64,000 bases of DNA from assembly GCA_030586555.1 (NCBI GenBank), contig JAURAC010000015.1, positions 9,820-73,819 of the forward strand. The letters run 5' to 3'. The stretch comes from Candidatus Subterrananammoxibius californiae. GTDB lineage: Bacteria > Planctomycetota > Brocadiia > Brocadiales > Subterrananammoxibiaceae. Below, piece by piece: positions 36,056 through 63,260 of the stretch. The translations under genes and the position numbers were made by a program. The notes under the pieces were generated by a model. That model did no database searches. It was not told where the DNA came from and saw nothing but the letters and a program-made list of their open reading frames with translations. Position 1 is the first letter of the stretch, and every line of letters begins with the position of its first letter.

Positions 36056-36116
36056 GGGTGGCATGGACAAATTTGTTCGCCATGGCGAATCTGCCTTGGG
36101 CATGATTCGTCCGTGC
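36056..36116. repeat. Family C element with nested 30-bp family D1 element
   Basis: GGGTGGCATGGACAAATTTG-[TTCGCCATGGCGAATCTGCCTTGGGCATGA]-TTCGTCCGTGC. Confidence 0.85.
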
Positions 36117-36131
36117 TCTTGAGATTATGAA

Positions 36132-36725
36132 ATGTCGCTTGAAAGAATAACAAAGTCAATATTAGATGACGCTGAGAAAGAGGCGGCGAGGATACTTCAT
36201 GCAGCACAAGCAGCCATCCAGCGCAAAATTGCTTCTGTTAGAGAAGAACTTAAAAAAAATCTAATCGAAAGGTTAAAAGATGTAGAGGTAGAAATTGAGG
36301 AGAAAAAGGCAATAGAACTTTCTAATCTAAGAACAAGTTACAGGCAGCAGATTCTTGAAATTAAGAATACCGTAATTGATGACGTTTTCAAAAGGGCTGT
36401 GCAGCAAATTGTTTCTCTTTCCGATGAAAGGTATCTTTCTATTATAGAAAAATGGCTTCAAGCAATTAGTACAACGGGGCAGATTTTTATAAGCTCAAAG
36501 GATTCAAAACGAATCACCTATGAGTTTATTTCAAGGATTAATCAATCGAGAAAGGAATCCTCAAGTCTTTCCCTGAGCAAGGATTTCGCTAATATAAGTG
36601 GTGGGTTTATGCTGAAGACAGAAAAGTTTGAGATTGACCACTCCCTTGAGGCAATTTCATTGAATCTGCGTGAGCGACTCGGACCCAAAATTGCAAAAGA
36701 ATTATTCAGAGAGCAGACTTGGTAG
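36132..36725 (+). CDS. ntpE: V/A-type ATPase subunit E
   Basis: MSLERITKSILDDA, ISGGF, IAKELF; stop supplied by repeat. Confidence 0.88.
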   Translation: MSLERITKSILDDAEKEAARILHAAQAAIQRKIASVREELKKNLIERLKDVEVEIEEKKAIELSNLRTSYRQQILEIKNTVIDDVFKRAVQQIVSLSDERYLSIIEKWLQAISTTGQIFISSKDSKRITYEFISRINQSRKESSSLSLSKDFANISGGFMLKTEKFEIDHSLEAISLNLRERLGPKIAKELFREQTW

Positions 36726-36788
36726 ACAACGAGGTTTTATCCGCCTCAGACGGATTGATTTCAACGGACATAAAGTCCGTTGTCTACC
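36721..36788. repeat. Family A doublet with inserted TCCGCCTCAGACGGA hairpin
   Basis: GGTAGACAACGAGGTTTT-ATCCGCCTCAGACGGAT-TGATTTCAACGGACATAAAGTCCGTTGTCTACC. Confidence 0.85.
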
Positions 36789-36802
36789 GACAGAAGAACC
36801 CT

Positions 36803-37876
36803 ATGTATGAGTCAAACCAATCAGGGTCGAAGATTGAGCGAAGCGAAACATGGTGTTATATTAGCGGAAAGGTGTGCGTATTAGAATCCTTTCTTTTGAA
36901 GCGCGATTTTTTCGAACGCCTCATAAACCTCGAAAAGCATGAGGACGTTTTTCTGACTCTTAGTGATTCACCATTAAAGGAGTATTTCGTTCATATTGAA
37001 CGCCTTTACGAGTCGGAGAAGATTCTCGAAGAACGTTATTTTAACGAAATCTTCGAGATAAGAAAGTTTTCTCCCAACCCTATATTAAGCAACATATTCC
37101 TTATAAAATATGATTTCGTCAATCTAAAAAATTTCCTGAAAGAGTTGCTTGCTGGAATTCCAAGAGAGGTTCCAACCCCCCATCCATCCTTCCCCCTCTA
37201 TGTGGGAGAGGTGGGGTGGGGGGATAGCGAATGGGAACGCCTTTGGAAAGGCGAAAGGACAGGGTTTCACCCGATATTTGAAGACGCAATCAGGATAATA
37301 AAAGAGTTAAAAGAAAGTTCTCCGGACTTGCTATCGGCGAATCCTTTTATAATTGATTTGGTGCTTGATAATGCGTATTTATGCTATCTTGCATATATGG
37401 TGTCTAAACTAAATGTTCCATTAATTAAAAAATATTTTGATGACTATTTTATTATAAAGGGTACAGAGATAATTATGCGTGCCATCGCAAACAGGTCTGA
37501 TATGGAGCAAATATCAAAAATATTTCTAAGGGGCATAATGCAAAAGGATTTTTTCTTTAAGCTTCTTAAATGCCCCCTGACCGAGATCAGGGGCTGGCGT
37601 GGGGCATTACTCGAAGTTTTTCCTTCTAAATTAGTTGACGAAATCTTTGCAGGGTCTTCTAAAAATCTTTTTACACAATTTGAGCGACTGACAGATAACT
37701 ACCTTCTTAGAAAACTCCAGCCAGCAAAGGTTGTAACTTTTGGACCTGAGCGTGTCTTCGGCTACCTTTGTGGTCTTACAACAGAAACATATAATTTGAG
37801 GCTTACCCTTGGGGGAAAGGTAAACATGGTTAACACTGACTTAATAAAAGAGAGCCTGAGAGAGCTTTATGTCTAA
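36803..37876 (+). CDS. ntpC: V/A-type ATPase subunit C (d)
   Basis: YDFVNLK, FGPERVFGYL, LRELYV; start moved to ATG 36803 because upstream part is repeat. Confidence 0.8.
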   Translation: MYESNQSGSKIERSETWCYISGKVCVLESFLLKRDFFERLINLEKHEDVFLTLSDSPLKEYFVHIERLYESEKILEERYFNEIFEIRKFSPNPILSNIFLIKYDFVNLKNFLKELLAGIPREVPTPHPSFPLYVGEVGWGDSEWERLWKGERTGFHPIFEDAIRIIKELKESSPDLLSANPFIIDLVLDNAYLCYLAYMVSKLNVPLIKKYFDDYFIIKGTEIIMRAIANRSDMEQISKIFLRGIMQKDFFFKLLKCPLTEIRGWRGALLEVFPSKLVDEIFAGSSKNLFTQFERLTDNYLLRKLQPAKVVTFGPERVFGYLCGLTTETYNLRLTLGGKVNMVNTDLIKESLRELYV

Positions 37877-38189
37877 GGTTATCGCTGTGGGCGAAAGAGA
37901 TCTTATAATAGGTTTTAAAGCCGTTGGGGTAGAACTTGTGTCTGTTAAATCCCCTTCCGAAGTGGGTGCTGTACTTAAAAAATTATCCCAGGATGCTTCA
38001 GTAGGACTAATATTAATTACTGAAACTGTAGCCGAAGGATGTCTTGATGTAATTTCAAGTTTTAGGGAGGAAAGCGCTGCTGTTATTCTAATCGTACCCA
38101 GCCATCTTCCGACAAAACACATAAGCATGCTCGAGATAAAGCGTAATATAGAGAAGGCAGTGGGTGTTGATATGTTATCGAAATCCTGA
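37869..38189 (+). CDS. ntpF: V/A-type ATPase subunit F
   Basis: GFKAVGV, LILITE, IEKAVGVD. Confidence 0.9.
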   Translation: MSKVIAVGERDLIIGFKAVGVELVSVKSPSEVGAVLKKLSQDASVGLILITETVAEGCLDVISSFREESAAVILIVPSHLPTKHISMLEIKRNIEKAVGVDMLSKS

Positions 38190-38267
38190 GCTTGCAAGGA
38201 GATGTTATATGGACATAATAATATAAATTTAACCAAAGTAACTTTTAAATGGAAAGGAGATCCAGAA

Positions 38268-38462
38268 ATGCATGCCTATAAATATATTACAAAGATATTA
38301 GAAAACGGGAAAATAGAATTACCTAAGTTGCCGTTGAAAAAAGGGGTCGAAGTAGAGGTAATTATTTTACCACAAAGCGAAGACGATCTTTTGAAGGCTT
38401 CCGAGAGTAGTTTGAATTTCTGGTACAATGACATAGATGACGGGGTCTGGAATAGTGTATAA
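38268..38462 (+). CDS. Putative antitoxin
   Basis: GKIELP..VEVIIL, ASESSLNFW..DDGVW; overlaps PemK-like gene. Confidence 0.65.
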   Translation: MHAYKYITKILENGKIELPKLPLKKGVEVEVIILPQSEDDLLKASESSLNFWYNDIDDGVWNSV

Positions 38463-38802
38463 GCAACGAGACATCTTAATAATACCTATACCTTTTACTA
38501 ATCTTACAGCAAATAAGAAGCGTCCAGTTGTTGTACTTTCCAACGATCATTACAACAACAAAGCAGAAGATATTGTTGTTATCGCTGTAACTTCAAACAT
38601 TGAACGGAAGGAATATTCTATTCTGATTTCTAACCAAGACTTAGAAGAAGGCGTTTTACCACATCAAAGTATAGTGCGTGTAGATAAAATATACACTCTC
38701 AATAATTCAATCGTAATCAAGAAACTCGGTGTTTTGCGAAAAGAAACGTTTAAAAAGGTAAAGGATACCCTAATAAAGCTAATTAACCAAAATATTTCTT
38801 AA
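38455..38802 (+). CDS. PemK/MazF family toxin
   Basis: QRDILIIPIPFT, KKRPVVVLSN, AVTSN, SIVRVDKIYT. Confidence 0.9.
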   Translation: MYKQRDILIIPIPFTNLTANKKRPVVVLSNDHYNNKAEDIVVIAVTSNIERKEYSILISNQDLEEGVLPHQSIVRVDKIYTLNNSIVIKKLGVLRKETFKKVKDTLIKLINQNIS

Positions 38803-38866
38803 AAAATAAAAAGATTTTTTTTACAAAAGGGTTACTATTGAGCTTGTATTGAGTGAAGCAAACGTG

Positions 38867-40639
38867 ATGGATAATGGAGTTGTAATTAAGGTTTCTGGTC
38901 CGCTGGTTGTAGCAAAGAATCTGTCCGGAACGAGGATTTATGACCTTGTTCGTGTCGGTCAATTCAAGCTTTTTGGTGAGGTTATAGAAATACGAGGTAA
39001 TGAGTACTTCATACAGGTTTATGAAGAAACAGAAGGTTTAGGGCCTGGCGACCCTGTCTATCCAACAAATCAACCGCTTAACGTAGAGCTCGGACCAGGT
39101 TTAATTGGCTCTATATACGATGGTGTGCAAAGACCACTCGATGTGCTAAGAAACAAGCTTGGTGATTTCATCACGAGGGGGGCAGAAAGCCCGCCACTTA
39201 ACCGTACTAAAAAATGGCGCTTCCATCCAACCCGTAAGATTGGAGAAGAAGTTATCCCCGGAGACATCCTCGGCACGGTTAAGGAGTCTTCACTTATAGA
39301 GCACAGGATGATGGTTCCTGCAGGAATCAAGGGCAGGGTGTCCAGGATTAAAGAAGTAGATACAACTGTTGAAGAAACAGTTGCCACAATTGAAACCCAT
39401 TCAGGCGTAAAGGAAATCTCAATGATTCAGAAATGGCCTGTTAGAGAGCCAAGAGAGGTGGTAAGGAAGCTCCCTCCTGTTATGCCCCTTGTAACTGGCC
39501 AGAGGGTAATAGATATGCTGTTTCCTATAACAAAAGGTGGCACTGCATGCGTTCCAGGCCCCTTTGGCAGTGGGAAGACGGTTGTCCAGCACCAGCTTGC
39601 AAAATGGTCTGACGCTGATGTTATCGTCTACGTTGGCTGTGGGGAAAGGGGTAATGAAATGGCTGATGTATTAATAGAATTACCACAACTAAAAGACCCC
39701 AAATCTGGCGAGTCATTGATGGAAAGGACAGTCTTGATTGCCAACACGTCCAATATGCCTGTCGCAGCCCGTGAGGCATCCGTATATACTGGAATAACGA
39801 TTGCTGAGTATTATAGGGATATGGGATATAGCGTTGCCCTTTTGGCAGATTCTACGTCAAGATGGGGCGAAGCCATGCGGGAAATCTCTGGAAGGCTTGA
39901 GGAGATGCCTGGTGAGGAGGGCTATCCCAATTATCTTGCATCCAGGCTTGCTGGTTTCTACGAAAGGGCAGGAAACGTTATTTGTCTCGGTTCGGATGGC
40001 AGGAAAGGTTGTTTAAGTGTAATTGGGGCCGTTTCTCCCCCGGGTGGTGACCTCTCTGAACCAATTACACAGGCAACGCTTCGCGTTGTAAAGGTGTTCT
40101 GGAGCCTTGATGACAGGCTTGCATCACAACGACATTTTCCAGCAATCCACTGGCTGACCAGCTATTCACTTTACCGTGACGTTGTTGATGATTATTGTGT
40201 CTCAAATATAGATTCGTCATGGAAAGAAAACAGAAGAAGAGCAATGGAGATACTCCAAAGGGAGTCAGAATTAGAGGAAATTGTGAGGCTTGTAGGAATT
40301 GATGCCCTTTCCTATGGGGACAGGCTCTATATGGAGGTTGCAAAGATGATTCGCGAGGATTTTCTCCATCAGAATGCCTTTGACAGGCGCGATACATATA
40401 CTTCTTTGAAGAAACAGTATCTTATCCTTGACAATATCATCAAGTTTTATAACAAGGCAAAAGAGCTTTTAAAATCTAATGTGGAATTTTCAAAGATAAT
40501 TACAATTCCATCTAAAGAGGAGATTGCAAGGTCAACGCTTATTCCTGAGGACCAGCTACATAAATTCACAGAGATTGGTAGTAAGATAGCAGCGGAATTG
40601 AATGCCTTGCTTCCGAAGGAGATGGTAAGAAGTGCTTAA
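38867..40639 (+). CDS. ntpA: V/A-type ATPase subunit A
   Basis: [29 protein letters not shown]; alternative start TTG 38849. Confidence 0.97.
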
Positions 40640-42011
40640 GGAGTATTTGACAATAAAAAATATTTCGGGTCCTCTTCTACTCGTCGAAGACGTTGAGGGG
40701 GTCACTTATGGTGAGTTGACGGAAATAAAGCTTGATAATGGCAAACTGAGGCGAGGAAGGGTCCTTGAGATAGCCGATTCAAGGGCGCTTGTGCAGGTCT
40801 TTGAAGGCACACGTGGAATATCTCCAGAAAATGCAAAGGTAAAGTTTCTCGGAAAGGGTCAGGAGATTGGGGTTTCTCCCGATATTATAGGAAGAATCTT
40901 TGATGGTGCAGGGCTTCCTATTGACGGTGGGCCTGAAATAATCCCTACAAAGAGAGTGAACATAAATGGTAGTCCGATGAACCCGTATGCCAGAGACTAC
41001 CCAAACGAATTTATCCAGACTGGCATTGCCGCTATTGATGGTATGAACACCCTTGTGAGGGGTCAGAAATTGCCAATTTTTTCTGGTTCAGGGCTTCCTC
41101 ACGCACAACTCGCTGCGCAAATAGCCCGACAGGCTAAGGTGCTTAAGACAGGGGAAAAGTTTGCAGTCGTTTTTGCAGCCATGGGAATAACCTTTGAGGA
41201 GGCGAATTTTTTTATCTCTGATTTTGGAAGAACAGGGGCACTTGAAAGGTCAGTGCTCTTTATAAACCTGGCTGATAACCCGACAATCGAAAGGATTGCA
41301 ATCCCGAGGATAGCGCTTACGGTAGCAGAATACCTTGCTTATGAGCAAGATATGCACGTACTTGTAATCTTAATTGATATGACAAACTATTGTGAGGCGC
41401 TAAAAGAAATATCAGCCGCAAGAAAGGAAGTTCCTGGAAGACGCGGGTATCCTGGCTATCTTTATACGGACCTTGCAACGCTCTATGAAAGGACTGGACG
41501 CATCAAAGGCAAGCAGGGCTCCATTACACAGATACCAATACTCTCTATGCCAGAGGATGACAAGACACACCCTATTCCTGATTTAACGGGCTATATTACT
41601 GAGGGTCAAATAATCCTCAGCAGGGCGCTCCACAGTCAGGGTATTTACCCACCAATAGACGTCCTTCCAAGCCTTTCTCGATTAAAGGATAAGGGGATAG
41701 GGGAGGGGAAGACACGCATTGACCATGCAGATGTAATGAATCAACTTTATGCCGCATATGCTCGTGGGGAAGAAGCGAAGGAGATTGCAGTTGTGCTTGG
41801 AGAATCGGCGTTAAGCCCCACCGACTTGTTGTTTATGAGCTTTGCAGACCTTTTTGAAAGAAAATTCGTCCAGCAGGGCGAAAATGAGAATAGAACCATT
41901 GAGCAAACACTTGATATAGGCTGGAAGCTCTTAAAGATGCTTCCAAAAACAGAGTTGAAAAGGATTAGACCAGAGTTGTTAGACGTATATTATAAGGGGA
42001 AAATGACGTGA
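40632..42011 (+). CDS. ntpB: V/A-type ATPase subunit B
   Basis: [39 protein letters not shown]. Confidence 0.97.
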
Positions 42012-42625
42012 AACTAAGGGTCAATCCAACAAGGATGGAACTCTTAAAACTCCGCAAGAGGCTTGTTGTTGCAATAAGAGGGCATAGACTTCTTAAAGAC
42101 AAGCTCGAAGGATTAATGACGGAATTCCTTATATTAGTTAAAGAATATAAGAAAGCCCGTCTGCGGCTTGATGAGGAGTTGTCTGCTGTAATGAGGCTTT
42201 TTGTCCTTGCAAGTATAACGTCTTCCAGGCAAGCGATATTAACAGCGCTTGAGCAATCAAAAGGACGACAGGAAATTAACATTAAGCAAAAATGGCTGGT
42301 TACCGTTCTTGTCCCCCAGTTCGAGGTCGCTATTATCCAGGGCGGGACTTCATACAGCTATCTTGACACGCCATGTGAGTTAGATACCGCAGTAAATGAA
42401 TTGAAAGAATATTTTCCTAAGATACTAAAACTTGCCGAGCTCGAACAGTCGCTAAGACTCGTGGCTAAAGAAATAGAAAAGACTCGCAGAAGGGTAAATG
42501 CCCTTGAGTATATTCTTATTCCCCAGATTAAAGAGACTATTAAATTTATCAAAAGTAAGTTAGATGAGATGGAACGGTCGAACATTAACCGCCTTATGAA
42601 GATAAAAGAGATGTTTAGGCAATAG
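42008..42625 (+). CDS. ntpD: V/A-type ATPase subunit D
   Basis: [26 protein letters not shown]. Confidence 0.95.
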
Positions 42626-42633
42626 TCAACAAT

Positions 42634-42690
42634 GGAGACAACGAGGTTTAGTCTTGTTGAAATCAACGAACATAAAGTTCATTATCTACC
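42634..42690. repeat. Degenerate family A doublet
   Basis: GGAGACAACGAGG...TCAACGAACATAAAGTTCATTATCTACC. Confidence 0.75.
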
Positions 42691-42718
42691 AATTACTAAA
42701 GTATGAGGAGACAAAATC

Positions 42719-43213
42719 ATGCACCAATTATTTATTGTTATTCCTGTAGCTGTTTTTGTTATTGCCTTAGTTGTTTTTGTTCTTTATAGAAGGCGGACGC
42801 GTGCTGGCAAGTCAGAGGGCGTTACTCAAAAACGTGAATATTTCAGGGCGGACGTGCTTGAACCGGAGGCATTTATCGTCATAATTGAACTTGATGCTGG
42901 CAGCCTTACCGGATGCAGGCTAATGAATATTAGTATAGGTGGCGCTGGTATATTGGCTGTTCGGCATCCGATTGTTCTTGAAATAGGTTCGAGGATAAAA
43001 GAGATTAAGGTTGTGTTTCCGAGTGGCGAAGAAATAAGGTCTTCGGCAATTGTAAAGCATGCTTTAAGAGAATCCGATTCTGACTGGAATAGGTATGGGA
43101 TACAATTTACAGACCTATCAGATGCTCAAAGCAGTATTGTGGCAAAATACGTAGTTCAGCTTGAAGCTAAAAAGATTAAAGAGCAGCGAACCGTGCCAAC
43201 TAAGGAAGGGTAG
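42719..43213 (+). CDS. Membrane-anchored PilZ-domain protein
   Basis: N-terminal TM; QKREYFR and NISIGG c-di-GMP motifs; YGIQF. Confidence 0.88.
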   Translation: MHQLFIVIPVAVFVIALVVFVLYRRRTRAGKSEGVTQKREYFRADVLEPEAFIVIIELDAGSLTGCRLMNISIGGAGILAVRHPIVLEIGSRIKEIKVVFPSGEEIRSSAIVKHALRESDSDWNRYGIQFTDLSDAQSSIVAKYVVQLEAKKIKEQRTVPTKEG

Positions 43214-43262
43214 ACAACGAGGTTTTACCTCGTTGAATCAACGAACATAAAGTTCGTTGTCC
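43209..43262. repeat. Family A doublet supplying PilZ stop codon
   Basis: GG-TAG-ACAACGAGGTTTTACCTCGTTGAATCAACGAACATAAAGTTCGTTGTC. Confidence 0.88.
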
Positions 43263-43273
43263 ACGGAATAGAA

Positions 43274-45734: not shown

Positions 45735-45766
45735 GGGTGGCATGGACAAACTTGTTTGTCCGTGCC
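45735..45766. repeat. Family C element, intergenic
   Basis: Identical core to 45112 copy. Confidence 0.9.
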
Positions 45767-45774
45767 GTTAGTAT

Positions 45775-46500
45775 TTAATGTTTTCCAAGCAGTGGTACAA
45801 AGCGCACCGGAAGCACGTTTTTGACGATTATCTTTTCATCCTTGTCCTTCATTACAAGCATGAGATTTTGAACTTGATATACAGTACCTATTGGAATAGC
45901 CATCCTTCCACCTGGTTTAAGCTGCTGTATAAGTGGCGGAGGGATATGATTTGCCGCCGCAGTAACGATAATGGCGTCAAAAGGTGCGTGTTCAGGCAAG
46001 CCGAAATATCCATCTCCAACCTTCACCGCAACGTTGGAATATTTCATCTCCTCAAGCCTTTTTTTTGCCTTTATGCCCAGTTCCTCGATGATTTCAATGG
46101 TATAAACCTGTTTAACAATCTTTGAGAGCACGGCTGCCTGATACCCTGAGCCCGTTCCAATCTCAAGCGCCACAGAATTACCATCAACCTCCAATAACTC
46201 CGTCATTAATGCAACGATATAAGGTTGCGATATTGTCTGGCCGCATCCAATTGGCACTGGCTGGTCCTCGTAACCGTAATTTTTGTATTCCTCTGGTACG
46301 AACAAATGACGCGGAATGTTTCTCATGGCGTCGAGCACCTTTGGGTCCTTAACACCCCGCGCTGCAATCTGCCCCTCAACCATCTCTAACCTTTGCCGTG
46401 TGTATTTATCCTCAGACGTGGTGGCATGGACAAACTTGTTTGTCCGTGCAGCTAAAAGGATGGTTAATATTATTAAAGCATAACAAGCAATAATTTTCAT
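45775..46500 (-). CDS. pcm: Protein-L-isoaspartate O-methyltransferase with N-terminal signal/anchor
   Basis: PRHLFVP, GQTISQPYIVA, LEIGTGSGYQAA, PFDAIIVTAA, FVPL. Confidence 0.95.
   Translation of the reverse strand: MKIIACYALIILTILLAARTNKFVHATTSEDKYTRQRLEMVEGQIAARGVKDPKVLDAMRNIPRHLFVPEEYKNYGYEDQPVPIGCGQTISQPYIVALMTELLEVDGNSVALEIGTGSGYQAAVLSKIVKQVYTIEIIEELGIKAKKRLEEMKYSNVAVKVGDGYFGLPEHAPFDAIIVTAAANHIPPPLIQQLKPGGRMAIPIGTVYQVQNLMLVMKDKDEKIIVKNVLPVRFVPLLGKH
46420..46449. repeat. Family C element inside pcm
   Basis: GGTGGCATGGACAAACTTGTTTGTCCGTGC encodes ARTNKFVHAT. Confidence 0.9.
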
Positions 46501-46564
46501 AACTTATTACCTATCTTTTACTATAAATAAATTGAAGCAGTCTTTCAAGCCATTTTAATTTTTT

Positions 46565-46645
46565 GGTGGCACGGACAAATTTATTTGTCCGTGTATTTGG
46601 TAAAAAGGGAGGGACACAGACAAGCAAGGCTTGTCCATGCCACCC
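46565..46645. repeat. Family C inverted doublet
   Basis: GGTGGCACGGACAAATTTATTTGTCCGTG ... CACAGACAAGCAAGGCTTGTCCATGCCACCC. Confidence 0.8.
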
Positions 46646-52850: not shown

Positions 52851-52871
52851 AAAAAAATTTTAAAGATTCTT

Positions 52872-53651: not shown

Positions 53652-53732
53652 GGAATTATTCCTTGCTTAAAGGCGAAAAGGTAAAAAAGAAAAAGGGTTT
53701 AAACCTCTTAGCCTCTTAACCTCTTAGCCTTT

Positions 53733-54047
53733 TTACCTTGACTTCATTAGCTTATGCCAGTTGTAGCCAATAATGAACCCGCCAATAGAGCCGCCGAGGG
53801 TAAACAAACATAGTAAAAGGTCTCCTCTATCAGTGTTAATGTAAGGGTTACGTGGCGGTCTTCCAAAGTTTGTTGCATATTTGCCTACAATACTTACGTC
53901 TATGCCCGTCCAGGCTTCTTGTTCCTCTGCCCCGCGTAGGGGCGTATTGTTAGCCACGGCGAATCTGCCTAAGGCATGACAATATGCCCCTACTATTGCT
54001 ATTGTTATCAATAAGAACGCCATTATAATTTTTTTAGATTTGCGCAA
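53733..54047 (-). CDS. Small cobalt transport accessory protein (CbiN-like)
   Basis: Two TMs, WTGIDVSIV, GDLLL..F; between cbiM and cbiQ. Confidence 0.7.
   Translation of the reverse strand: MRKSKKIIMAFLLITIAIVGAYCHALGRFAVANNTPLRGAEEQEAWTGIDVSIVGKYATNFGRPPRNPYINTDRGDLLLCLFTLGGSIGGFIIGYNWHKLMKSR
53936..53993. repeat. Family B element with nested 30-bp D1 element, inside cbiN-like gene
   Basis: GTAGGGGCGTATTG-[TTAGCCACGGCGAATCTGCCTAAGGCATGA]-CAATATGCCCCTAC. Confidence 0.9.
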
Positions 54048-54795: not shown

Positions 54796-54821
54796 TTTTT
54801 TACCTCTCTGGTTAATTAAAA

Positions 54822-54890
54822 TCAACGAACATAAAGCTCGTTGTCTACCCATCATTTTAGTTGGTAGACAACGAGGTTTTACCTCGTTGA
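54822..54890. repeat. Family A halves in the opposite (GTAG-inward) arrangement
   Basis: TCAACGAACATAAAGCTCGTTGTCTACC-N13-GGTAGACAACGAGGTTTTACCTCGTTGA. Confidence 0.85.
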
Positions 54891-54899
54891 AATACAATA

Positions 54900-55655
54900 T
54901 TAAAAATTAAGGTGAATGCCTATATAGCCAAGGAAATGTGGTTCTTCGCTGCTTCTCTCTCCAAAGCTCCTACCTGCCGAACCCATTATTGTAGGGGCAG
55001 GTTTCAAACCTGTCCTTATCTTATACCTAAAACCAAGGTTAAATAGTGGTGGCTTAGCCTCTTTATGCTCGGTTACAAATCCGAAAATCTCCCCCACCGC
55101 GTCAATCTTTTTAGAAACAGGGTGCTCACCAAAGAAGCCGTAAAATAATTCATTGGTTGTGTCTTTTTCCCGATGTATGAAGTATCCAATCTGAGAACCT
55201 ATATAAAGGGATTTAATGTGGCGGTCAAATTCTAACGGCAAAAAGAAATCAGGTGTGGTGCGTCCGTTACCTGTAGGCATAAATATTGTTGGTGTAGTAG
55301 AAATAGAGGTAACCCAAGCTGTCTCGTCAACAAACCTGTATTTTGTTGCAAACTGGACGTCTCCCATACCGCTATCCTTACCATTTTCATCGTGGTCTAT
55401 AGACGTATGAGGTATTACCAAATTTAACTGCGTTCTTTTGCGAATCCCATAGTTGGCATCAACTACGAATCCTGTGGCTCTTTCATGGATTGTATTTCTT
55501 GTTGTGTAGGCAAGATTAATTTCCCATTTATTATGGCCTGGTGTGCCAGTGTCATCTGTAACAAGCGGTGAACCGCCACCCATAAGTGGTTTAAAGGTTG
55601 CTTCGAATATGAGGCAGGTAACCATGGATAATAAAGGAAGACGATAGTTCTTCAT
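54900..55655 (-). CDS. Small outer-membrane beta-barrel transporter-family protein
   Basis: PLVTDDTGTP, GMGDV..TKYRF, PTG, terminal LNF; first gene behind B12 riboswitches. Confidence 0.7.
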   Translation of the reverse strand: MKNYRLPLLSMVTCLIFEATFKPLMGGGSPLVTDDTGTPGHNKWEINLAYTTRNTIHERATGFVVDANYGIRKRTQLNLVIPHTSIDHDENGKDSGMGDVQFATKYRFVDETAWVTSISTTPTIFMPTGNGRTTPDFFLPLEFDRHIKSLYIGSQIGYFIHREKDTTNELFYGFFGEHPVSKKIDAVGEIFGFVTEHKEAKPPLFNLGFRYKIRTGLKPAPTIMGSAGRSFGERSSEEPHFLGYIGIHLNF

Positions 55656-55697
55656 TAAGTTCTCTTTTCCCCTCGGAAAAAGACACTCAAAAATAAC

Positions 55698-55856
55698 TGT
55701 GCAAGACAGGTTTCCTGGCTCACGTTTTAAAACCTACTCTCTGAGCCTTCCCACCCAGCCAGCAATGCCAGCTGGACAGTGGCATACTTCAGATTTCGTT
55801 ACGTTTACAGTTGCGGGGCAGCGTTCTTACGAACTTCCCTTGCATCCTGCACACAA
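55698..55856 (-). ncRNA. Cobalamin riboswitch (downstream, compact)
   Basis: AGG..AAGGGAA-GTTC-GTAA-GAAC-GCTGCCCCGCAACTGTAA...GCCACTG...TGGGAAGG...AGCCAGGAAACCTG. Confidence 0.88.
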
Positions 55857-55880
55857 TAAAATAATCATATCAACAGAGTT

Positions 55881-55910
55881 GGGTGGCATGGACAAACTGG
55901 TTTGTCCGTG
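55881..55910. repeat. Family C element between the riboswitches
   Basis: GGGTGGCATGGACAAACTGGTTTGTCCGTG. Confidence 0.9.
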
Positions 55911-55951
55911 TCACACTAAATTGTTTTTCTATGGCATCACCTCCTTAAAAC

Positions 55952-55990
55952 AAAAAAGCCCGTATCCTTTGATTGGAAAAGATACGGGCT
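55952..55990 (-). terminator. Intrinsic terminator in expression platform of upstream riboswitch
   Basis: AGCCCGTATC...GATACGGGCTTTTTT on minus strand. Confidence 0.8.
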
Positions 55991-56050
55991 ACGTAGCAAG
56001 AAATCTACCAACTCCACCTTCTTTACCATCGAAGAATACTGTGAAGCAAT

Positions 56051-56217
56051 TACAGGCAGGTCTTCTGACTAACGGGTCTTCCTACTCATTGCTCCTTCCC
56101 ATCCACATCGAGGTGAACAGTGGTTATATGCAATTTTCGTCACCGTTTACAGCGGCGGGTCCGTGTCCTAATGGACTTCCCTTTTTATCCTCATTTACGA
56201 TGGGGATACCTGTAATT
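56051..56217 (-). ncRNA. Cobalamin riboswitch (upstream)
   Basis: ACAGGT..AAAAGGGAA-GTCC-ATTA-GGAC-ACGGACCCGCCGCTGTAA...ACCACTG...TGGGAAGG...AGTCAGAAGACCTGCC. Confidence 0.92.
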
Positions 56218-56355
56218 GGGTCATTATATTTAAATTTTCAAAGTACAAGTTGTACGGCAATCTTTAGGATTGCTCAAAATAAAATATTAGTTACAAGACC
56301 CACCCTTGCGGGCAGGTCATGCCTGAGGCAGATTCGCCAATCCTTATGGCGAACA

Positions 56356-58431
56356 TTATTTACTCCCAACGAGAAGCGTATTGCAACTCTCTGGTATTTG
56401 ACATCTCAACCTTCGGTATGAGGCTAAGGCAAATAATGGAAAGTAATTTCTATAAAGATGATATTTTAAATAGAAAAATCTTGGGAAGCCTGTAGCTGTA
56501 AATTCGTCCTCATCCCATGTTCCGTCCTGGTTTTGTGTTTTCAGTAGATACTTTATTCCTCTTTCCATGGCGGGACAGTCTATCTCATTAACGGCAAGTA
56601 ATCCCATAATTGCCCATGCCGTTTGCGAGGCGGTGCTTGAACCCATAGCCTTAAATCTTGGGTTTTCGTATGACTTGCACCTTTCGCCCCAACCGCCATC
56701 TGAGTTCTGAACGTTCTTGAGCCAGTGAACTGCTTTTTGAATATACTCCTTACCCATATCTTCACCAACGGATTGAAGACCGTAGAGCACAGACCACGTT
56801 CCATAAATGTAATTGCATCCCCATCTGCCGTACCATGAGCCATCCGGTTCCTGGTCCTTTTTCAGGAATTCAATTGCCTTCTGGATAACAGTGTTTGAGG
56901 TATTAAATCCCACCTTACCCAGCCATCCGAGGCAGCGTCCAGTCACGTCGCTCGTGCTTGGGTCAAGGAGCGCTCCAAAATCGGCAAATGGGATATAATT
57001 TAAGACCGCTTTGTTATTATTACGGTCAAACGCCCCCCAGCCGCCGTCATCGCATTGCATACCTAAGAGCCATTTTAGTGCCCTTAATAACACTTCTTCT
57101 TTATTTGACTTCTCGGATAGGGGGATACGCTGTAAAGCCATTAAGACCGCTGCGCTATCATCTGTATCTGGATAAAACTCATTCTCGTACTGGAAATACC
57201 ATCCGCTTGGTTCCACTGATGGGTTTTTCAATTTCCAATCACCAGGCTTTCGTACCTCTTTTGTCAGAAGCCATTGTCCTGCCTTCGTTAACGCAGGGTG
57301 GTTCTTTGGAATCCCGGATTCGTGTAGTGCAATAATTGCCCATGCCGTATCCCATACGGGGGAAACGCATGGCTGCATGTGTAGCGTATCTTTATCTTCA
57401 ATCGTAAGACGTTCAAGCTCTTTTATCTGAGATAGCAGTGCAGGGTGGTTGTTACTGTAGCCAAGGCTCTTCATTGCAAAGATAGAATTAACAATACCCG
57501 GCCATATCGCCCCTAATCCCCCGGACTTCTCAAAATGGGACAGCATCCATTGTTCAGCCTTCTTTATTGCGAACTTTCTCAATATATGGATGGGCCGTTC
57601 GTCGTATCTCTTAAATACATCATTCATATCTACTATAAAGTTGCGTATGGTTACCTTGTTATGGTCTCGTTCAAGGCGATAGCTTACCTTTTCTTTAGGT
57701 ATCGTGTATAGCTCATCTAAAGATATATTTTCGCCAACCTTCGACTTAAGCCTTTTTGCAACAGCTATTGACAATGGGATTACTATGCACCTTGACCAGT
57801 AGGACATTTCATAAACATTGAAGCTGAAAAAATTTGGGAATAGTATCATTTCCACAGGAATAGCTGGAACTCCCCTCCAGTCAAAATGTCCAAAGATTGC
57901 AAGGTAAATCTTTGTGAAGCAATTTACCTTCATTATTCCACCGAGATTGAGTACGCATCTCTTTGCCTTTTGCATAAGTGGAGCGCTGGCAGGTACGCCA
58001 GCGAGTCTCAAGGCAAAGTATGCCTTTACTGTGGTGCTTACCTCGCTCGGACCGCCACAATATAAGTTCCAGCCTCCGTCTGGAAGCTGTTTCTTAACGA
58101 GGAACATGGCAGCCTTCTTTTGTTTTGCATGATTGACACGGCTAAGGAAATGCATTAGCATGATATATTCTGAGGTTAACGTAGAGTCGGCTTCTAATTC
58201 ACCAACCCAATATCCATCCCTGTGATTTTGTATGCTGAGTAAATATCTTTGAGACGTGCCTATTGCCTGGTCTAATTCACTTTCGGTAGAAACCTTGACG
58301 GAATGTTCTTGCGGTTCTTCCCAACTCAGTTCGTGCAAGAGGTCTTCTAAGATATGTCCATTTCCGTTATCGTTCAGCCTCTGAAATCGGTTATTAAGCC
58401 TCTCTACAAGCCTTGATAAACGATTAATCAT
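56356..58431 (-). CDS. shc: Squalene-hopene cyclase
   Basis: YPDTDDSA, multiple QW repeats (QxxDGGW), GTWS, TGFP. Confidence 0.97.
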   Translation of the reverse strand: MINRLSRLVERLNNRFQRLNDNGNGHILEDLLHELSWEEPQEHSVKVSTESELDQAIGTSQRYLLSIQNHRDGYWVGELEADSTLTSEYIMLMHFLSRVNHAKQKKAAMFLVKKQLPDGGWNLYCGGPSEVSTTVKAYFALRLAGVPASAPLMQKAKRCVLNLGGIMKVNCFTKIYLAIFGHFDWRGVPAIPVEMILFPNFFSFNVYEMSYWSRCIVIPLSIAVAKRLKSKVGENISLDELYTIPKEKVSYRLERDHNKVTIRNFIVDMNDVFKRYDERPIHILRKFAIKKAEQWMLSHFEKSGGLGAIWPGIVNSIFAMKSLGYSNNHPALLSQIKELERLTIEDKDTLHMQPCVSPVWDTAWAIIALHESGIPKNHPALTKAGQWLLTKEVRKPGDWKLKNPSVEPSGWYFQYENEFYPDTDDSAAVLMALQRIPLSEKSNKEEVLLRALKWLLGMQCDDGGWGAFDRNNNKAVLNYIPFADFGALLDPSTSDVTGRCLGWLGKVGFNTSNTVIQKAIEFLKKDQEPDGSWYGRWGCNYIYGTWSVLYGLQSVGEDMGKEYIQKAVHWLKNVQNSDGGWGERCKSYENPRFKAMGSSTASQTAWAIMGLLAVNEIDCPAMERGIKYLLKTQNQDGTWDEDEFTATGFPRFFYLKYHLYRNYFPLFALASYRRLRCQIPESCNTLLVGSK

Positions 58432-58581
58432 GCATCGTTCCTCCTTTTGCTAAAGTTATAACCAGCGGGTTCTCAACTTGCATGACTTATGTGCTCCCAA
58501 CAATTAATAGGTCAACTTAGGTACACAAAATAGCATATTTAACTACTTTTTTCAAGAAAAACTTTCACAATTACCGAGTTT

Positions 58582-59172
58582 TTACATTATCCCCTTTGTT
58601 GACGGAACGCCTTCTATTCTTTCATTTATTCTGACGGCCGTGTCAAGTGCCTTTGCCAGCCCCTTAAAGATTGCTTCAACAATGTGGTGGGCGTTAGAAC
58701 CGTAAGGCACGTTTACGTGTAAGTTAATGCCTGCATTTGCACTAAAAGCCTCAAGAAACTCTCTGACGAGGCTTGCATCAAAATTGCCAATCCTGTCTGT
58801 ATTAAAATTTACATTAAAAACAAGAGCCGGTCTGCCACTAATATCAATGGCAATATCAGCAAGGGATTCTTGCATGGGCACACTTGTACTGGCGAATCTG
58901 GTTATACCCTTTTTATCACCTAAGGCATCTTTAAGGGCTTGTCCCAGACAAATGCCCACATCTTCAACCGTGTGGTGGTCATCTACTCGCTGGTCACCAC
59001 TTGCTTTAATGGTTAAATCAATTAAAGCATGCCTTGCAAACAAATCGAGCATGTGGTCTAAGAACCCTACGCCAGTTGAGATATTAGATTTTCCCTTTCC
59101 ATCTAAGTTAAGGGTCAATTCCACATTAGTCTCGCTCGTTTTTCTTTTTACTTGCGTCGTTCTTTGTTTCAT
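58582..59172 (-). CDS. hisB: Imidazoleglycerol-phosphate dehydratase
   Basis: [30 protein letters not shown]. Confidence 0.97.
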
Positions 59173-59186
59173 AACAAGCTCCGTTT

Positions 59187-59295
59187 GTCATTCTGAGGCG
59201 TAACCGAAGAATCTCATTGAGGTGATTCGTGGAGTTTACCCTGAGCGAGGGAATGAGGTTCTTCACCTTCGCTGTCACTCAGGCTCAGAATGAGA
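59187..59295. repeat. GTCATT..GAAG.AATCTC type repeat cluster (family G)
   Basis: GTCATTCTGAGGCGTAACCGAAGAATCTC ... CTCAGAATGA; relatives at about 7210 and 49240-49275. Confidence 0.55.
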
Positions 59296-59346
59296 CGTAA
59301 AAGTTACCTTTCCGCCCAGAAGATGGCAGGTCTCCGATTTGCCTCG

Positions 59347-60465
59347 TCAATGTTCATATTTGTAAAGGGCTGCTGCTTCCTTTTTTCTTTTTACAGCGAC
59401 TTGTTTGCTCAAGCCTTCCTCTTTTATTATATCCCTTAAGTTGTCTAAAAAGCATCCAATTTCCTCTTTTGTACCAACGGTGACTCGAAGGCAGTCATCA
59501 GCCTTTGGAATGTCAAAGTAGCGAATAAGTATTTTTCGGTTCTTTAGTTTTTGCATAATCTGTCTTGCTGCAAAGACGCTGGAACATCTGAAAAAGACAA
59601 AGTTAGACTGGGATGGATAAACGAAAAAACCCATCTCACTAAGCGAGTTTGAAAGAAATGCCCTCGTTTCCTTAATCCCCGCAACATTTCTTTTCAGGGT
59701 TTCCTGGTCGTCCAGCGCAGCAATGGCGGCTGCCATGCTGAGCCTGTCCACATTGTATGAATCCTTTGCCTTAATCATACCCTGAATAATTGCCTCATTG
59801 GCAATGCAGAATCCGAGACGAAGACCTGCAAGTGAGTATGATTTTGAAAGCGTTCTAAGTACTAAGATATTTGGATATTTGTCTACAAGGGTAAGACAAT
59901 TCGAGTCTGCAAAATCTGCGTAAGCCTCGTCTAAAACAAGGACGCCATCCATTTTCTCTGCGAGTTTAGAGATTTCTCCTGCCGGAATTATCGTTCCGGA
60001 AGGGGAATTAGGGTTTGCAACGAAGGTTACTTTTGCTCCTTTTACCGATATGCCGTTGGGAAGTGAGTAGTCGTCTGGAAAATCTATAGGGCAGGCTATT
60101 GCATCCTGTAATTCGGCTAATGTCTTATATAGCATGTATGTTGGGTAAGGATAAACCACCTTGTCACCAGGACCCGCAAAGCTTCGGATGATTATTGTCA
60201 AAAGGTCGTCAGAACCGTTTCCAACCAGCACATTTTCCGGCTTTGTACCGAACACATTAGCCGCATTCTCACGCACATACGTCGCAAGAGGGTCAGGGTA
60301 AAGACGGAGGTTACTATTAGCAGCATCCTTAATGGCATCAATAACCTTCGGGGACGGTGGATAAGGATTTTCATTGGTATTAAGCTTTACATATTTCCCA
60401 TCCTTTGGCTGCTCACCCGGTTGGTAGCCTGCCATTCTCTCAATATTATCGCGAAAGTAACTCAC
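59347..60465 (-). CDS. hisC: Histidinol-phosphate aminotransferase
   Basis: KLNTNENPY, NPNSPSG, DEAY, RTLSKSYSLAGLRLG. Confidence 0.96.
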   Translation of the reverse strand: MSYFRDNIERMAGYQPGEQPKDGKYVKLNTNENPYPPSPKVIDAIKDAANSNLRLYPDPLATYVRENAANVFGTKPENVLVGNGSDDLLTIIIRSFAGPGDKVVYPYPTYMLYKTLAELQDAIACPIDFPDDYSLPNGISVKGAKVTFVANPNSPSGTIIPAGEISKLAEKMDGVLVLDEAYADFADSNCLTLVDKYPNILVLRTLSKSYSLAGLRLGFCIANEAIIQGMIKAKDSYNVDRLSMAAAIAALDDQETLKRNVAGIKETRAFLSNSLSEMGFFVYPSQSNFVFFRCSSVFAARQIMQKLKNRKILIRYFDIPKADDCLRVTVGTKEEIGCFLDNLRDIIKEEGLSKQVAVKRKKEAAALYKYEH

Positions 60466-60530
60466 TATTAATTTTTCTCCTCACCTTTTTGAAAAAGCTG
60501 CACCATGTAGGGGCATGTGGGTGTGTTCTT

Positions 60531-61325
60531 TCACCACCAATACACCGGGGTCGTCCCATCATTTCCGATAATGGTGCCATGCTCAACATCCTTCATCTTA
60601 ACTACCGAATAGCCAGAGGCAAGCTGGTTATACTGGCTATAAAGCTTCTTGTAAAAGAGCTTGCTTTTTTTACCAATTTTTTTAATATACGCCTCATACA
60701 CGGTGAAATTTTGGCTGTTTGCATAAATCGTTAAATTATCTTCACCCCTGCCGCCGTCAATAAAGGCCCTGTCCTTGCCAGGGCTCACATCGTATGTCAT
60801 CGTATCTGCCCCATCCTCGCCACACATCTCGACAATGTCATCCCAATCGCCACCGTCCAGAAAGAGCATATCATCGCCCCTTCCGCCATGCTGGATAATA
60901 TAGTCACTATCAGCACCACCATCTGCATCTATGAAATCATCGCCCGTCCCGCCATATTGTTTAATGCGGTCATTACCCGAGTCTCCGTTACCAATTTGAG
61001 CATCGCTGCCCTCCCCACCATCCTGGAGGATGCGGCTGTTTCCACCGCCACCCCCTATATACTGGTTGTCATCACCATCCCCGCCATCTTGTTCGAGCCA
61101 GTCGTCGTCAGCATTACCTTCGATAACCTGGGTGTCTTCGCCATCAAACCCGTTCTGAACAATCTTATCCCTGAGCGGGGTGGCAAATGTTATTTGAGTA
61201 TCATCGCCCGGCGTGCCATTAACGGTTACGTAATTGTCATAACCGGCATAGCCATTGTCAGGGATAGTTAGTAAGAATAACGTTACTGCAATAACACATC
61301 CCAAAATTACGTTTTTCTTTTCCAT
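60531..61325 (-). CDS. Secreted RTX-like Ca-binding repeat protein
   Basis: Signal peptide; GGxGxD repeats; ORF extension to 61382 is heptamer repeat. Confidence 0.8.
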   Translation of the reverse strand: MEKKNVILGCVIAVTLFLLTIPDNGYAGYDNYVTVNGTPGDDTQITFATPLRDKIVQNGFDGEDTQVIEGNADDDWLEQDGGDGDDNQYIGGGGGNSRILQDGGEGSDAQIGNGDSGNDRIKQYGGTGDDFIDADGGADSDYIIQHGGRGDDMLFLDGGDWDDIVEMCGEDGADTMTYDVSPGKDRAFIDGGRGEDNLTIYANSQNFTVYEAYIKKIGKKSKLFYKKLYSQYNQLASGYSVVKMKDVEHGTIIGNDGTTPVYWW

Positions 61326-61341
61326 TCCACCTTTAATAAAT

Positions 61342-61460
61342 AAATTACAAATCACAAATTCCAAATCCCAAATAAATTTCAAGCACGAAATCCGAAACCC
61401 GAAACAAAGACCTTGTTTCGAGTTTCGATATTCGAATTTCGGATTTGTTTGTTATTTGTC
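61342..61460. repeat. 7-bp-periodic inverted repeat region
   Basis: AAATTAC AAATCAC AAATTCC AAATCCC ... GAAATCC GAAACCC GAAAC / GTTTCGA GTTTCGA TATTCGA ATTTCGG. Confidence 0.75.
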
Positions 61461-62799
61461 ATTTTAAACGTATTTTTACGGATTGTGCATGGGCATCGAG
61501 TCCCTCGGATTCCGCAATTGTAATTATCTCATTTGCAGCTCCCTTTAACGCCTTCTTATTGTACGAGATAATGCTTGTCTTTTTAAGAAAGTCATTTACT
61601 GAAAGACCTGAAAAAAATCTTGCAGTTCCGCCAGTGGGAAGTACGTGTGAAGGTCCTGCAATATAATCCCCTACAGCTACTGGTGAAAACTCACCAATAA
61701 ATATAGCCCCTGCATTCTTAATATCGTTTAATACAGCCTCAGGGTTTTTGACCATTATTTGTAGATGCTCTGGGGCTAATTCATTTGAAATATCTACAAC
61801 TTCACTTATGTCCTTTGCAACGATTATCAAACCGTACCTATCGAGCGACTCTTTTATTAAGTCCCTTTTGGATAGTGTATCAAGCTGTTTTGAAACTTCT
61901 CTTTTTACCTTACTTGCCAACCCCTCTGAAGTAGTAACGAGAACAGGAAGTCCTGGGTTGTGCTCTGCCTGAGAGAGCAGGTCAGAGGCTACATATTCTG
62001 GATTAGCGGTATCATCAGCAATTATGAGCACCTCACTGGGACCAGCGAGTATATCTATTCCCACGTAACCGAAGACCTCTCTCTTTGCTAAGGTAACGAA
62101 TATATTACCTGGTCCTACAATCTTGTCAACCTTGGGGATTGTCTTTGTGCCGAAGGCAAGGGCTGCAATTGCATGTGCGCCACCTATCTTATAGATTTCA
62201 TCTACCCCTACTTCATTTGCGGCAACCAGCCTTTCTGGTGATACAGTGCCATCCTTTCGTGGTGGGGTTACCATTTCAATTTTCTTAACCCCGGCTACCT
62301 TTGCAGGCACGGCATTCATTAAAACGGTTGAGGGGTAAGAGGCTGTCCCTCCAGGGATGTAAATCCCTACCTTTTCAATTGCTCCATATCGAACACCAAG
62401 TGATAAATCTTCTAACTCAAGACAAGTAATCTCTTCTTGATAGATATGTTTCTGGAACCTACGAATATTCTCCCTTGCTTTTCTTATAGCATTTATAAAA
62501 GCACTGGTTACGTTATTATAGGCTTCCTCAATTTCAGATTCTTTAACCCTTATGTCTTCTGGCGAGAGCGGCACGCCGTCAAGTTTTTCCGTATAAAATA
62601 AAAGGGCATCATCTCCCTTTTCTTTTATATCACTAACTATCCGACTGACGCATTCCTTGGGGCTTAAAGCCTCTCCAAAGATATCTTTAGTCTTTTTTGC
62701 TGACTGAGTTGTGCTGATATTGCCGAAGATGCTAAAACTGTCTTTAAACCATTTAAGTTCCTCTTTAATATCACATTCCCAGCTACGCAAGTATCTCAT
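61459..62799 (-). CDS. hisD: Histidinol dehydrogenase
   Basis: GIYIPGG, GPGNIFV, AGPSE, SQAEH, APEHL, GPSHVLPT. Confidence 0.97.
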   Translation of the reverse strand: MRYLRSWECDIKEELKWFKDSFSIFGNISTTQSAKKTKDIFGEALSPKECVSRIVSDIKEKGDDALLFYTEKLDGVPLSPEDIRVKESEIEEAYNNVTSAFINAIRKARENIRRFQKHIYQEEITCLELEDLSLGVRYGAIEKVGIYIPGGTASYPSTVLMNAVPAKVAGVKKIEMVTPPRKDGTVSPERLVAANEVGVDEIYKIGGAHAIAALAFGTKTIPKVDKIVGPGNIFVTLAKREVFGYVGIDILAGPSEVLIIADDTANPEYVASDLLSQAEHNPGLPVLVTTSEGLASKVKREVSKQLDTLSKRDLIKESLDRYGLIIVAKDISEVVDISNELAPEHLQIMVKNPEAVLNDIKNAGAIFIGEFSPVAVGDYIAGPSHVLPTGGTARFFSGLSVNDFLKKTSIISYNKKALKGAANEIITIAESEGLDAHAQSVKIRLK

Positions 62800-63260
62800 G
62801 TTGTGCCTGAGGCAGATTCGCCGTGGCTAACTTTACTTTCCATACACCTTACCTTATCACCAATACAAATAGGACCAACCTGTGGCGTACCTGATATTTG
62901 CGATGTGTTTACATTTAATTTCTCAGTGGTATATTGCCTTGAATATTTTATACCCATAGCTTCTGCCATCATTGCTGCGCCCAGGGTCTGAACACCGCCT
63001 TCCTCCTCGCCAGCTTTCTTTACTAATTCGGCTGCACAGATAGAACACCTCTCCTGTACATGTGTAACCTTAAGATGCGCCTTAACCAGTTCCAGATAAC
63101 CTAAAGATTCCCCTGTATTTGGGTCCTTTACTTCTTCACTCCCCAGGGCAAAGACTACAACATTCATACCATCAGCCAGGCCATCCTTCCAACCAAGATT
63201 TATTACAATACTATATTCATCTAAGATTTTTATAACCTTACCTTCGATAGGCTTTAACAT
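62796..63260 (-). CDS. Hypothetical protein (FlgT C-terminal-like beta domain)
   Basis: VINLG..DG, DPNTGESLG, IGDKV; C-terminal tail from D1 element. Confidence 0.65.
   Translation of the reverse strand: MLKPIEGKVIKILDEYSIVINLGWKDGLADGMNVVVFALGSEEVKDPNTGESLGYLELVKAHLKVTHVQERCSICAAELVKKAGEEEGGVQTLGAAMMAEAMGIKYSRQYTTEKLNVNTSQISGTPQVGPICIGDKVRCMESKVSHGESASGTT

Follow-up and report, generated by a model that had tools for sequence, protein, structure and literature searches.

How very small repeats such as repetitive extragenic palindromes (REPs), the small dispersed repeats (SDRs) of cyanobacteria and nested mini-palindromes in uncultured bacteria enter new sites has, to our knowledge, been an open question since they were first described. 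The IS200/IS605 elements are characterized by terminal hairpins, insertion beside a short specific sequence, the lack of a target duplication, and a single-stranded DNA (ssDNA) route. In Nostoc and its relatives, the SDR4-6 repeats, reportedly described by Elhai et al. in 2008, are said to be modular hairpin units of 21-27 nt, which are nested and precisely inserted in other short repeats; we know of no transposase for the SDR repeats. The HIP1 palindrome is split by SDR5 precisely between its third and fourth bases (Elhai 2015, PMC4390886), some REPs sit within genes, in frame, or within other palindromes (PMC3733652, PMC6006769), and the systems formed by REPINs and REP-associated tyrosine transposases (RAYTs) are described as mostly vertically inherited. 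The Rickettsia palindromic elements (RPEs) are in-frame repeats in functional genes, read as extra peptide loops (PMC3733652), and the SRM/NTS are dispersed hairpin repeats of about 30 nt, present in many phyla and recognised as ssDNA by the GIY-YIG nuclease Ssn (Chenal et al. 2025, PMC11893778). A literature query on REPs and anammox gave a single paper that, by its title and abstract, concerned denitrifiers of a mountain lake. Here we analysed a 30-nt element, designated D1, in a stretch of 64,000 nt from Candidatus Subterrananammoxibius californiae (G000:C34:9820-73819, where G000 is the genome under study; hereafter the window) and in other genomes. We propose, with a probability of about 0.6, that D1 is a non-coding, non-autonomous mobile element of 30 nt, probably moved in trans by a hairpin-recognising ssDNA enzyme.

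D1 consists of two abutting mini-hairpins, TTCGCC-NN-GGCGAA and then TCTGCC-TNN-GGCA-C-GA, with nothing between or around them. Both hairpins had been recognised in an earlier reading of the window from its sequence alone (the sequence-only reading), which drew the second one too short: with one bulged C, it reaches the last base of D1. The D1 pattern with at most three mismatches gave four matches in the window and none in 100 shuffles, and the four copies lay where the sequence-only reading had placed them (Table 1). A flexible pattern collected 58 copies from the whole G000 assembly (3.34 Mb, 150 contigs, 42% G+C), as that reading had recommended; 45 of them were exactly 30 nt long and 13 had a longer first loop (31-37 nt). 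The 30-nt consensus with up to eight substitutions matched the genome 44 times, and the reversed consensus gave no match. The first hairpin, hairpin A, occurred 33 times in the genome and was followed by a second hairpin in all 33 cases (31 of the usual type and two of a CCCGCC variant). Therefore, D1 is never split, and there is no longer element that has the two halves of D1 as its ends. Some copies carried compensatory stem changes, from T-A to C-G at pairs 1-14 and 17-27, and further paired stem variants were seen (TCCGCC/GGCGGA, CGCC/GGCG); other copies were plainly decayed. The element starts with TTCGCC and ends with CGA, and neither of its strands contains GTAG.

The relatives used for comparison belong to the same order and share 65-74% DNA identity, and the comparison of orthologous intergenic sites failed. 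Since these relatives were too distant, conserved genes and a closer species pair were used for the comparison of filled and empty sites. In SucD (succinyl-CoA synthetase alpha), the interval between ITEGIP and GPNCPG has 41 residues in G000 and 31 residues in 29 of 29 loci of the relatives, and a gap of 10 residues lies at the same place in the SucD of E. coli. The extra 30 nt in the sucD gene of G000 were identified as a somewhat decayed D1; when they are removed, the frame and the length of 31 residues are restored, and the site reads cttg^caag. The closer pair, G005 and G031, are two species of one genus with about 82% identity over 3.5 kb aligned. Precisely the 30 nt that form D1 in a membrane-protein gene of G005, whose protein is 10 residues longer, are missing from G031. 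The empty orthologous site in G031 already reads atc^cttg, and the C-N-N-G on the right of the target was thus present before the insertion. No target duplication was seen in sucD or in the comparison of G005 with G031. Moreover, HflX carries an insert of 12 residues derived from a 36-nt D1 variant, and in an OYE-type reductase the alignment to a solved structure was too unclean for the case to be counted. TGAGTT/TGATTT direct repeats around some D1 copies of Desulfobacterota-type genomes were considered as a target duplication and ruled out, being parts of larger repeated units.

Five repeat families were found to host D1, and all of them also have empty forms: family B, a GTAG...CTAC palindrome (29 empty units with the centre 'gc', one of which lies at 63282, and about 10 filled), family C (129 empty units with loops of 4-5 nt, and three filled behind the ttg of the loop), family B2 (41 empty and five filled), family F (14 empty with 'GC' and 1-2 filled), and family E (six empty with 'GC' and 3-5 filled). 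Removal of D1 from 53936-53993 restores a 28-nt family B palindrome, and its removal from 36056-36116 restores a family C unit, as had been predicted. Conversely, reading through the 58 listed copies of D1 revealed no B or C unit inside any of them, no dedicated search having been made. The claim that D1 is a discrete unit, inserted later than its hosts, is thereby upheld by constant boundaries, by abundant empty hosts, and by two orthologous empty sites that are reconstructed from their filled partners by the loss of exactly 30 nt.

The insertion point in the five hosts always lay after W-W-G, at a G^C or G^T step: ttg^caa in family B, atg^ca or atg^cg in B2, aag^cc in F, ttg^ct in E, and ttg^tt in C. 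Among the 30 copies outside these hosts, G at position -1, C at +1 and G at +4 were each found in 26. Among 36 Desulfobacterota-type copies, C at +1 and G at +4 were each found in 32, and position -1 was T or G. The flank preference is two-sided and can be written WWG^CNNG. The statement that D1 is always preceded by G was correct for the four window copies, each on its own strand, and for about 54 of 58 copies in the genome; however, it does not extend to the Desulfobacterota-type copies, where G was found in only 14 of 36.

Many D1 copies lie in long open reading frames (ORFs). As read from the sequence, five of the six reading frames of D1 contain no stop codon, and its length is a multiple of three; D1 can thus be tolerated in frame in the loops of conserved proteins. 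The peptide frames FATANLPQAR, VRHGESASGTT and, in antisense, VVPEADSPWRT recur among these copies. In ORFs, 29 copies were in sense and 13 in antisense orientation, an excess that may be explained by the one closed frame of D1. Conserved enzymes such as SucD and HflX can bear a repeat-derived loop of 10-12 residues, which matters for the annotation of metagenome-assembled genomes. In the window, the copy at 62801 is immediately followed by the ATG of a histidinol-dehydrogenase-like gene; the 154-aa ORF in whose last codons it lies gains VSHGESASGT from it, and the overlap of stop and start is kept. Elsewhere in the genome, a single ORF of 316 aa (G000:C21:74946-75896) contains a pair of D1 copies of like orientation that are separated by 363 bp; one of the pair sits within a host E unit close to where the ORF begins.

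The exact D1 pattern was present in 16 of the 92 genomes of the order, and the reversed control pattern had no match. By family, it was present in 7 of the 14 f2 genomes, in 8 of the 28 f3 genomes and in none of the 47 f5 genomes. When one genome per species was scanned, at least 103 D1 loci were obtained. Planctomycetota (Brocadiales, Scalindua and related groups), Thermodesulfobacteriota/Deltaproteobacteria, Ignavibacteria/Chlorobi, Bacteroidota and others were among the matches listed. At a threshold of at most one mismatch, four Desulfobacterota-type genomes carried 24, 12, 15 and 14 copies on many long contigs, and an Ignavibacteria-type genome carried one copy. Besides these four, the genomes rich in D1 are G000, G005, G027, G031 and G090, whereas genus g11 and family f5 are free of it. 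A single match in an 'archaeal' bin shared its flanks with a Scalinduaceae locus and probably belongs to a mis-binned contig; the archaea were thus not counted. The viral contig collection gave no D1 match. Furthermore, D1 was found inside repeats similar to MITEs (transposable elements of the miniature inverted-repeat type), of about 230 bp in a Scalindua genome and about 210 bp in Desulfobacterota-type genomes, which have terminal inverted repeats of their own. The Scalindua repeat is bounded by ACCTAAATTGAGCGATTT / AAATCGCTCAATTTAGGT, holds D1 within a hairpin of the family F type, and makes up most D1 copies of that genome (L015, L033, L048, L053, L055, L057, L063, L066, L099). Several insertions at the same site were common to sister species (e.g. 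L037, L050, L056), and the D1 at 62801 was also present in a strain about 5% diverged (contig of X7, no gap). Therefore, many D1 copies are old.

D1 is added to DNA as an exact 30-nt block with no target-site duplication, and its target lies after two A/T bases and a G, usually followed by C-N-N-G. Since the centres of several REP-like palindromes read TTG^CAA, ATG^CAT or AAG^C, D1 comes to lie at their apex, and the composite palindromes subsequently multiply as units. An enzyme acting in trans probably recognises both hairpins on ssDNA and cuts and rejoins at their feet. The leading candidate is an enzyme of the HUH-Y1 type (RAYT or IS200-like), to which, specifically, we give tentative credence of roughly one in three. 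Either the enzyme or the element has probably crossed phylum boundaries. The exact block, the missing duplication, the short flanking motif and the terminal hairpins together fit ssDNA enzymes that cut and rejoin at the feet of hairpins, and an enzyme with such a cut-and-join activity is ranked first and microhomology-primed template switching second. A bolder version of this proposal, which we consider possible and rather doubtful, is that D1 is among the smallest self-spreading DNAs, moving between phyla (Planctomycetota and Desulfobacterota, with single copies in Ignavibacteria/Bacteroidota-type genomes) by an undescribed structure-specific ssDNA cut-and-join activity that is neither RAYT nor Ssn, with palindrome centres and protein loops as survivable landing sites.

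To what extent hairpin loops are themselves the target can be judged from the apex counts. Of the 58 copies, 18 occupy the apex of a palindrome that is 8 bp or longer, compared with 118 of 19998 control WWG^C sites, an enrichment of about 50-fold. With every host family and D1 subtype counted a single time, about 7 of about 37 events were still at an apex, against 0.6% of the controls. As this proportion is far above 0.6%, a genuine preference for hairpin apexes is likely, below the raw enrichment. The raw figure may be inflated by hitch-hiking, in which D1 would have entered each palindrome family once or a few times through matching centres, and the RAYTs of the hosts would have multiplied the composites, loops not being preferred as such. 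This explanation is a serious one, to which we give slightly less than an even chance. In the related genomes, 25 of 25 B-hosted copies carried AC in loop 1, compared with 15 of 84 copies elsewhere; composites thus multiply as units. In family B2, D1 was found only in the TGCA/TGCG-loop subfamily (five filled, seven empty) and in none of the 34 units with other loops. Furthermore, host E holds its insert in the stem arm, and for about 30 copies there is no surrounding hairpin. All of these observations weaken the reading of loops as the preferred target. Hitch-hiking is also in keeping with the ride of D1 in the MITE-like repeats of Scalindua and Desulfobacterota-type genomes, with the GTAG/CTAC ends of the host families, and with the REP-like hairpins, including family C, that flank RAYT-type genes. 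However, the B-hosted copies in G000 carry at least four loop-1 variants, and the roughly seven apex events left after the reduced count also argue against it. The claim of the sequence-only reading that hairpin loops are preferred is thus sustained with respect to the apex enrichment, but it has to be qualified, as composites co-amplify, the local sequence matters, and most copies lie outside hairpins.

Movement with no dedicated enzyme was also considered. Template switching at a stalled fork, primed by a microhomology of 3-4 nt between the donor flanks and the new site, would account for the constraint on both flanks (WWG on the left and CNNG on the right), which resemble the donor flanks in hosts B, B2, E and F, and it is consistent with the absence of a target duplication and of any linked gene found. 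Nevertheless, we regard it as unlikely, since two phyla with different hosts agree in the right flank (C at +1, G at +4), the left flanks of the G005 event (atc) and of 4 of the 30 solo copies are without the G, and every copy has boundaries that hold to the exact base. It is quite improbable that D1 is the recognition motif of a small site-specific GIY-YIG ssDNA nuclease of the Ssn type, a role held by hairpin repeats in Neisseria and many other bacteria, rather than a transposon end. Ssn nucleases bind hairpin repeats only as ssDNA, their cut lying a few bases upstream (PMC11893778), and the first hairpin of D1 with the TC behind it resembles the TTC...GAA-TC layout of the motif given there; G000 has one small GIY-YIG ORF of 98 aa. 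However, the published SRM pattern fits 0 of 58 D1 copies, its 9 matches in the genome compare with 11 for the reversed control, no D1 is adjacent to the GIY-YIG gene, and a GIY-YIG-like ORF lay within 2.5 kb in only 2 of 103 D1 loci; moreover, a nuclease alone does not explain the insertion. A selected, immobile sequence with a function, for instance as an RNA motif or as the binding site of a protein, would agree with the conservation of D1 across phyla and with the compensatory stem changes in some copies. But copies stand in frame in unrelated housekeeping genes and are absent from the orthologues, hairpin A is broken by TTAGCC in two of the four window copies, and no Rfam family exceeded its gathering threshold at D1. 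Given the filled and empty orthologous sites, this last explanation is close to refuted, and hardly any weight is left to it.

Several results must be set against our proposal that an ssDNA enzyme moves D1 in trans. The ssDNA fold of the 30-nt copies was weak (-4 to -5.9 kcal/mol, z -1.0 to -1.6); the expanded-loop copy folded better (-9.1 kcal/mol, z -3.3), and the composite of family B and D1 at 53936-53993 folded as one long hairpin (-17.4 kcal/mol, z -5.8). Both D1 flanks are constrained, unlike the one-sided targets of IS200/IS605. G000 has seven Y1 genes, four of which exceeded the NCBIfam cut-off for REP-associated tyrosine transposases and one the cut-off for IS200. Several are flanked by hairpins of their own: the C150 gene is followed by family C units, the C59 gene is preceded by a GTAG palindrome, and the C53 gene is surrounded by a hairpin GGTGGAACAGGC.... 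The D1 core was absent from the loci of about 3 kb around these seven genes and around 17 Y1 genes of five other D1-bearing genomes, and no D1 was found near the IS200-type gene on C136. Between the two phyla, the D1-bearing genomes had no Y1 type in common above 48% identity. Y1 genes (PF01797, with co-occurrence judged on the family as a whole) were present whatever the D1 status, in 87 of the order's 92 genomes, among them each of the 47 f5 genomes, which are free of D1. When all ORFs within 2.5 kb of D1 were clustered over the 103 loci, no recurrent gene family was obtained. No replication-strand bias was seen, with the D1 top strand on the G-rich strand in 31 of 58 copies (23 of 40 non-hairpin copies), GC skew being a proxy for the replication strand in an assembly of 150 contigs and following the gene strand in 95 of 111 windows. 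Finally, strains of another study showed no 30-nt gap at 53950 or 56317 (contigs of X2 and X4) or at 62801 (contig of X2); current D1 mobility was thus not seen in the strain contigs, which drop rare variants, so that immobility is not implied. The search that the sequence-only reading had recommended for a linked nuclease or transposase, covering the Y1 loci, the GIY-YIG locus and the ORFs of the 103 D1 loci, therefore yielded none. Its suggestion of ssDNA/HUH chemistry was not borne out by the seven Y1 genes without D1, by the presence of Y1 regardless of D1, or by the absence of a GC-skew bias, and it is still plausible.

Other enzyme families were also considered. Members of the IS110 family are known to target REP-like palindromes, and four IS110-family transposase genes are present at G000:C40:488, C90:53286, C25:233 and C146:3181. 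A search for Y2/IS91 gave no match in G000 and none in the control genomes either, and is thus uninformative. On the bottom strand of D1, CAGA or CGGA directly precedes hairpin A. According to Quentin et al. 2018, class 3 HuH-Y genes, found mainly in Planctomycetes, are flanked by atypical hairpins with the 5' foot CnGA; a motif search by regular expression found no class 3 HuH-Y ORF in G000. The 98-aa GIY-YIG ORF (G000:C53:1000-1500, L194) has an intact tRNA gene (anticodon GTT by eye) on one side and, on the other, a duplicate of the 5' part of this tRNA, in which the anticodon-loop region is replaced by a 15-nt U1 palindrome, TCCGCCTGAGGCGGA. The arrangement has the look of a small nuclease cassette inserted into a tRNA gene.

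Table 1. D1 copies, their host units and other nested palindromes in the window (window positions; strand given for D1 copies)
Feature	Position	Strand	Remark
Family C unit, different central hairpin (ACCCGTCC ACT GGACGGGT)	10645..10695		other nesting
15-nt U1-type palindrome (TCCGCC...GGCGGA) split by 23-nt hairpin insert	25058..25095		other nesting
Family C host unit (GGGTGGCATGGACAAA ... TTCGTCCGTGC) holding D1	36056..36116		intergenic, between ORFs 35510-36046 and 36132-36725
D1 copy, 30 nt	36076..36105	+	after loop 'tttg' of family C palindrome
GGTAGACAACGGAC palindrome, left arm (not apex) interrupted by U1-like hairpin module	36721..36788		other nesting
Family B host, D1 at apex	53936..53993		GTAG...CTAC 'double-foot' REP-like palindrome
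D1 copy, hairpin A damaged (TTAGCC)	53950..53979	+	in central g^c of family B palindrome
Expanded-loop D1 variant, 37 nt, first loop ATAAGGATT	56317..56353	-	5' of two tandem cobalamin riboswitches, same strand
D1 copy, hairpin A damaged	62801..62830	-	in frame, last codons of 154-aa ORF
Empty family B palindrome, 28 nt, centre 'gc'	63282..63309		

The window contains further nested palindromes, as listed in Table 1. Those that the sequence-only reading had noted at 10645, 22579, 25058 and 36721 are real, but they involve other types of insert, and at 36721 the insert lies away from the apex. An insert related to that at 25058-25095 also occurs in family C loops. The 15-nt U1 palindrome, TCCGCCTNAGGCGGA, has 142 exact-pattern copies in the genome and resembles the second hairpin of D1; in two copies (C28:23482, C53:19945) it replaces the centre of the first hairpin of D1. 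A second double-hairpin module, 44-46 nt long, with stems of the TCCGCC or TCCACC and TCGCC types and A-rich loops of 8-9 nt, takes up the apex positions that D1 uses in family B and C palindromes (e.g. C38:60358, C61:35367, C68:40157, C150:9661), and its core pattern matched the genome 17 times. The two cobalamin riboswitch aptamers near the expanded-loop copy lie in tandem on the minus strand at window positions 55688-55864 and 56038-56228 (70.6 and 101.3 bits). At window positions 45766-46615, contigs of the runs X2, X4 and X8 carry 4-7 other letters in place of 848 bases of the window, which suggests a segment that varies between strains and has family C units at its borders.

D1 is an unusually clean case of a very small repeat, with exact boundaries, filled and empty orthologous sites, a short defined target, and copies in essential genes; its main added value lies in the clean filled/empty sites and in its identity across phyla. 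Since D1 occurs in distant phyla and copy-rich lineages stand beside D1-free sisters, the missing enzyme should be findable by comparative genomics and testable with short oligonucleotides.

Compared with the SRM repeats and their Ssn nucleases, D1 departs from the pattern in every copy and brackets no nuclease gene. It shares with the RPEs and the intragenic REPs the occurrence in frame in functional genes; however, the RPEs are described as larger (PMC3733652), whereas D1 adds only 10 residues and nests in other repeats. As with the IS200/IS605 elements and their gene-less derivatives (PATEs), D1 has two terminal hairpins, inserts beside a short specific sequence, makes no target duplication and may use an ssDNA route, its flank preference being two-sided, but it is far smaller, shows no strand bias, and has no full-length tnpA relative with D1 ends in G000. 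The likeness to REPs and REPINs lies in the small hairpin repeats of high copy number; hosts B, B2 and F are of the 'double-foot' GTAG...CTAC kind, and RAYT-type genes are present in G000. However, D1 itself has no GTAG or GTGG foot, whereas these hosts do carry GTAG...CTAC; it flanks no Y1 gene, in which it departs from a REPtron, and it is often intragenic. Moreover, the presence of the repeat does not track that of the transposase (Y1 in 87/92 and D1 in 16/92 genomes), and D1 is common to several phyla. From the SDRs, D1 differs in its length of 30 nt, its two hairpins, its Planctomycetota and Desulfobacterota-type hosts, and its target, WWG^C instead of HIP1. Nevertheless, tiny, modular and nested units inserted precisely in otherwise conserved sequence are found in both, a likeness in behaviour only, and, judged by this analogy, the SDRs of Nostoc are the closest known system to D1 in behaviour.

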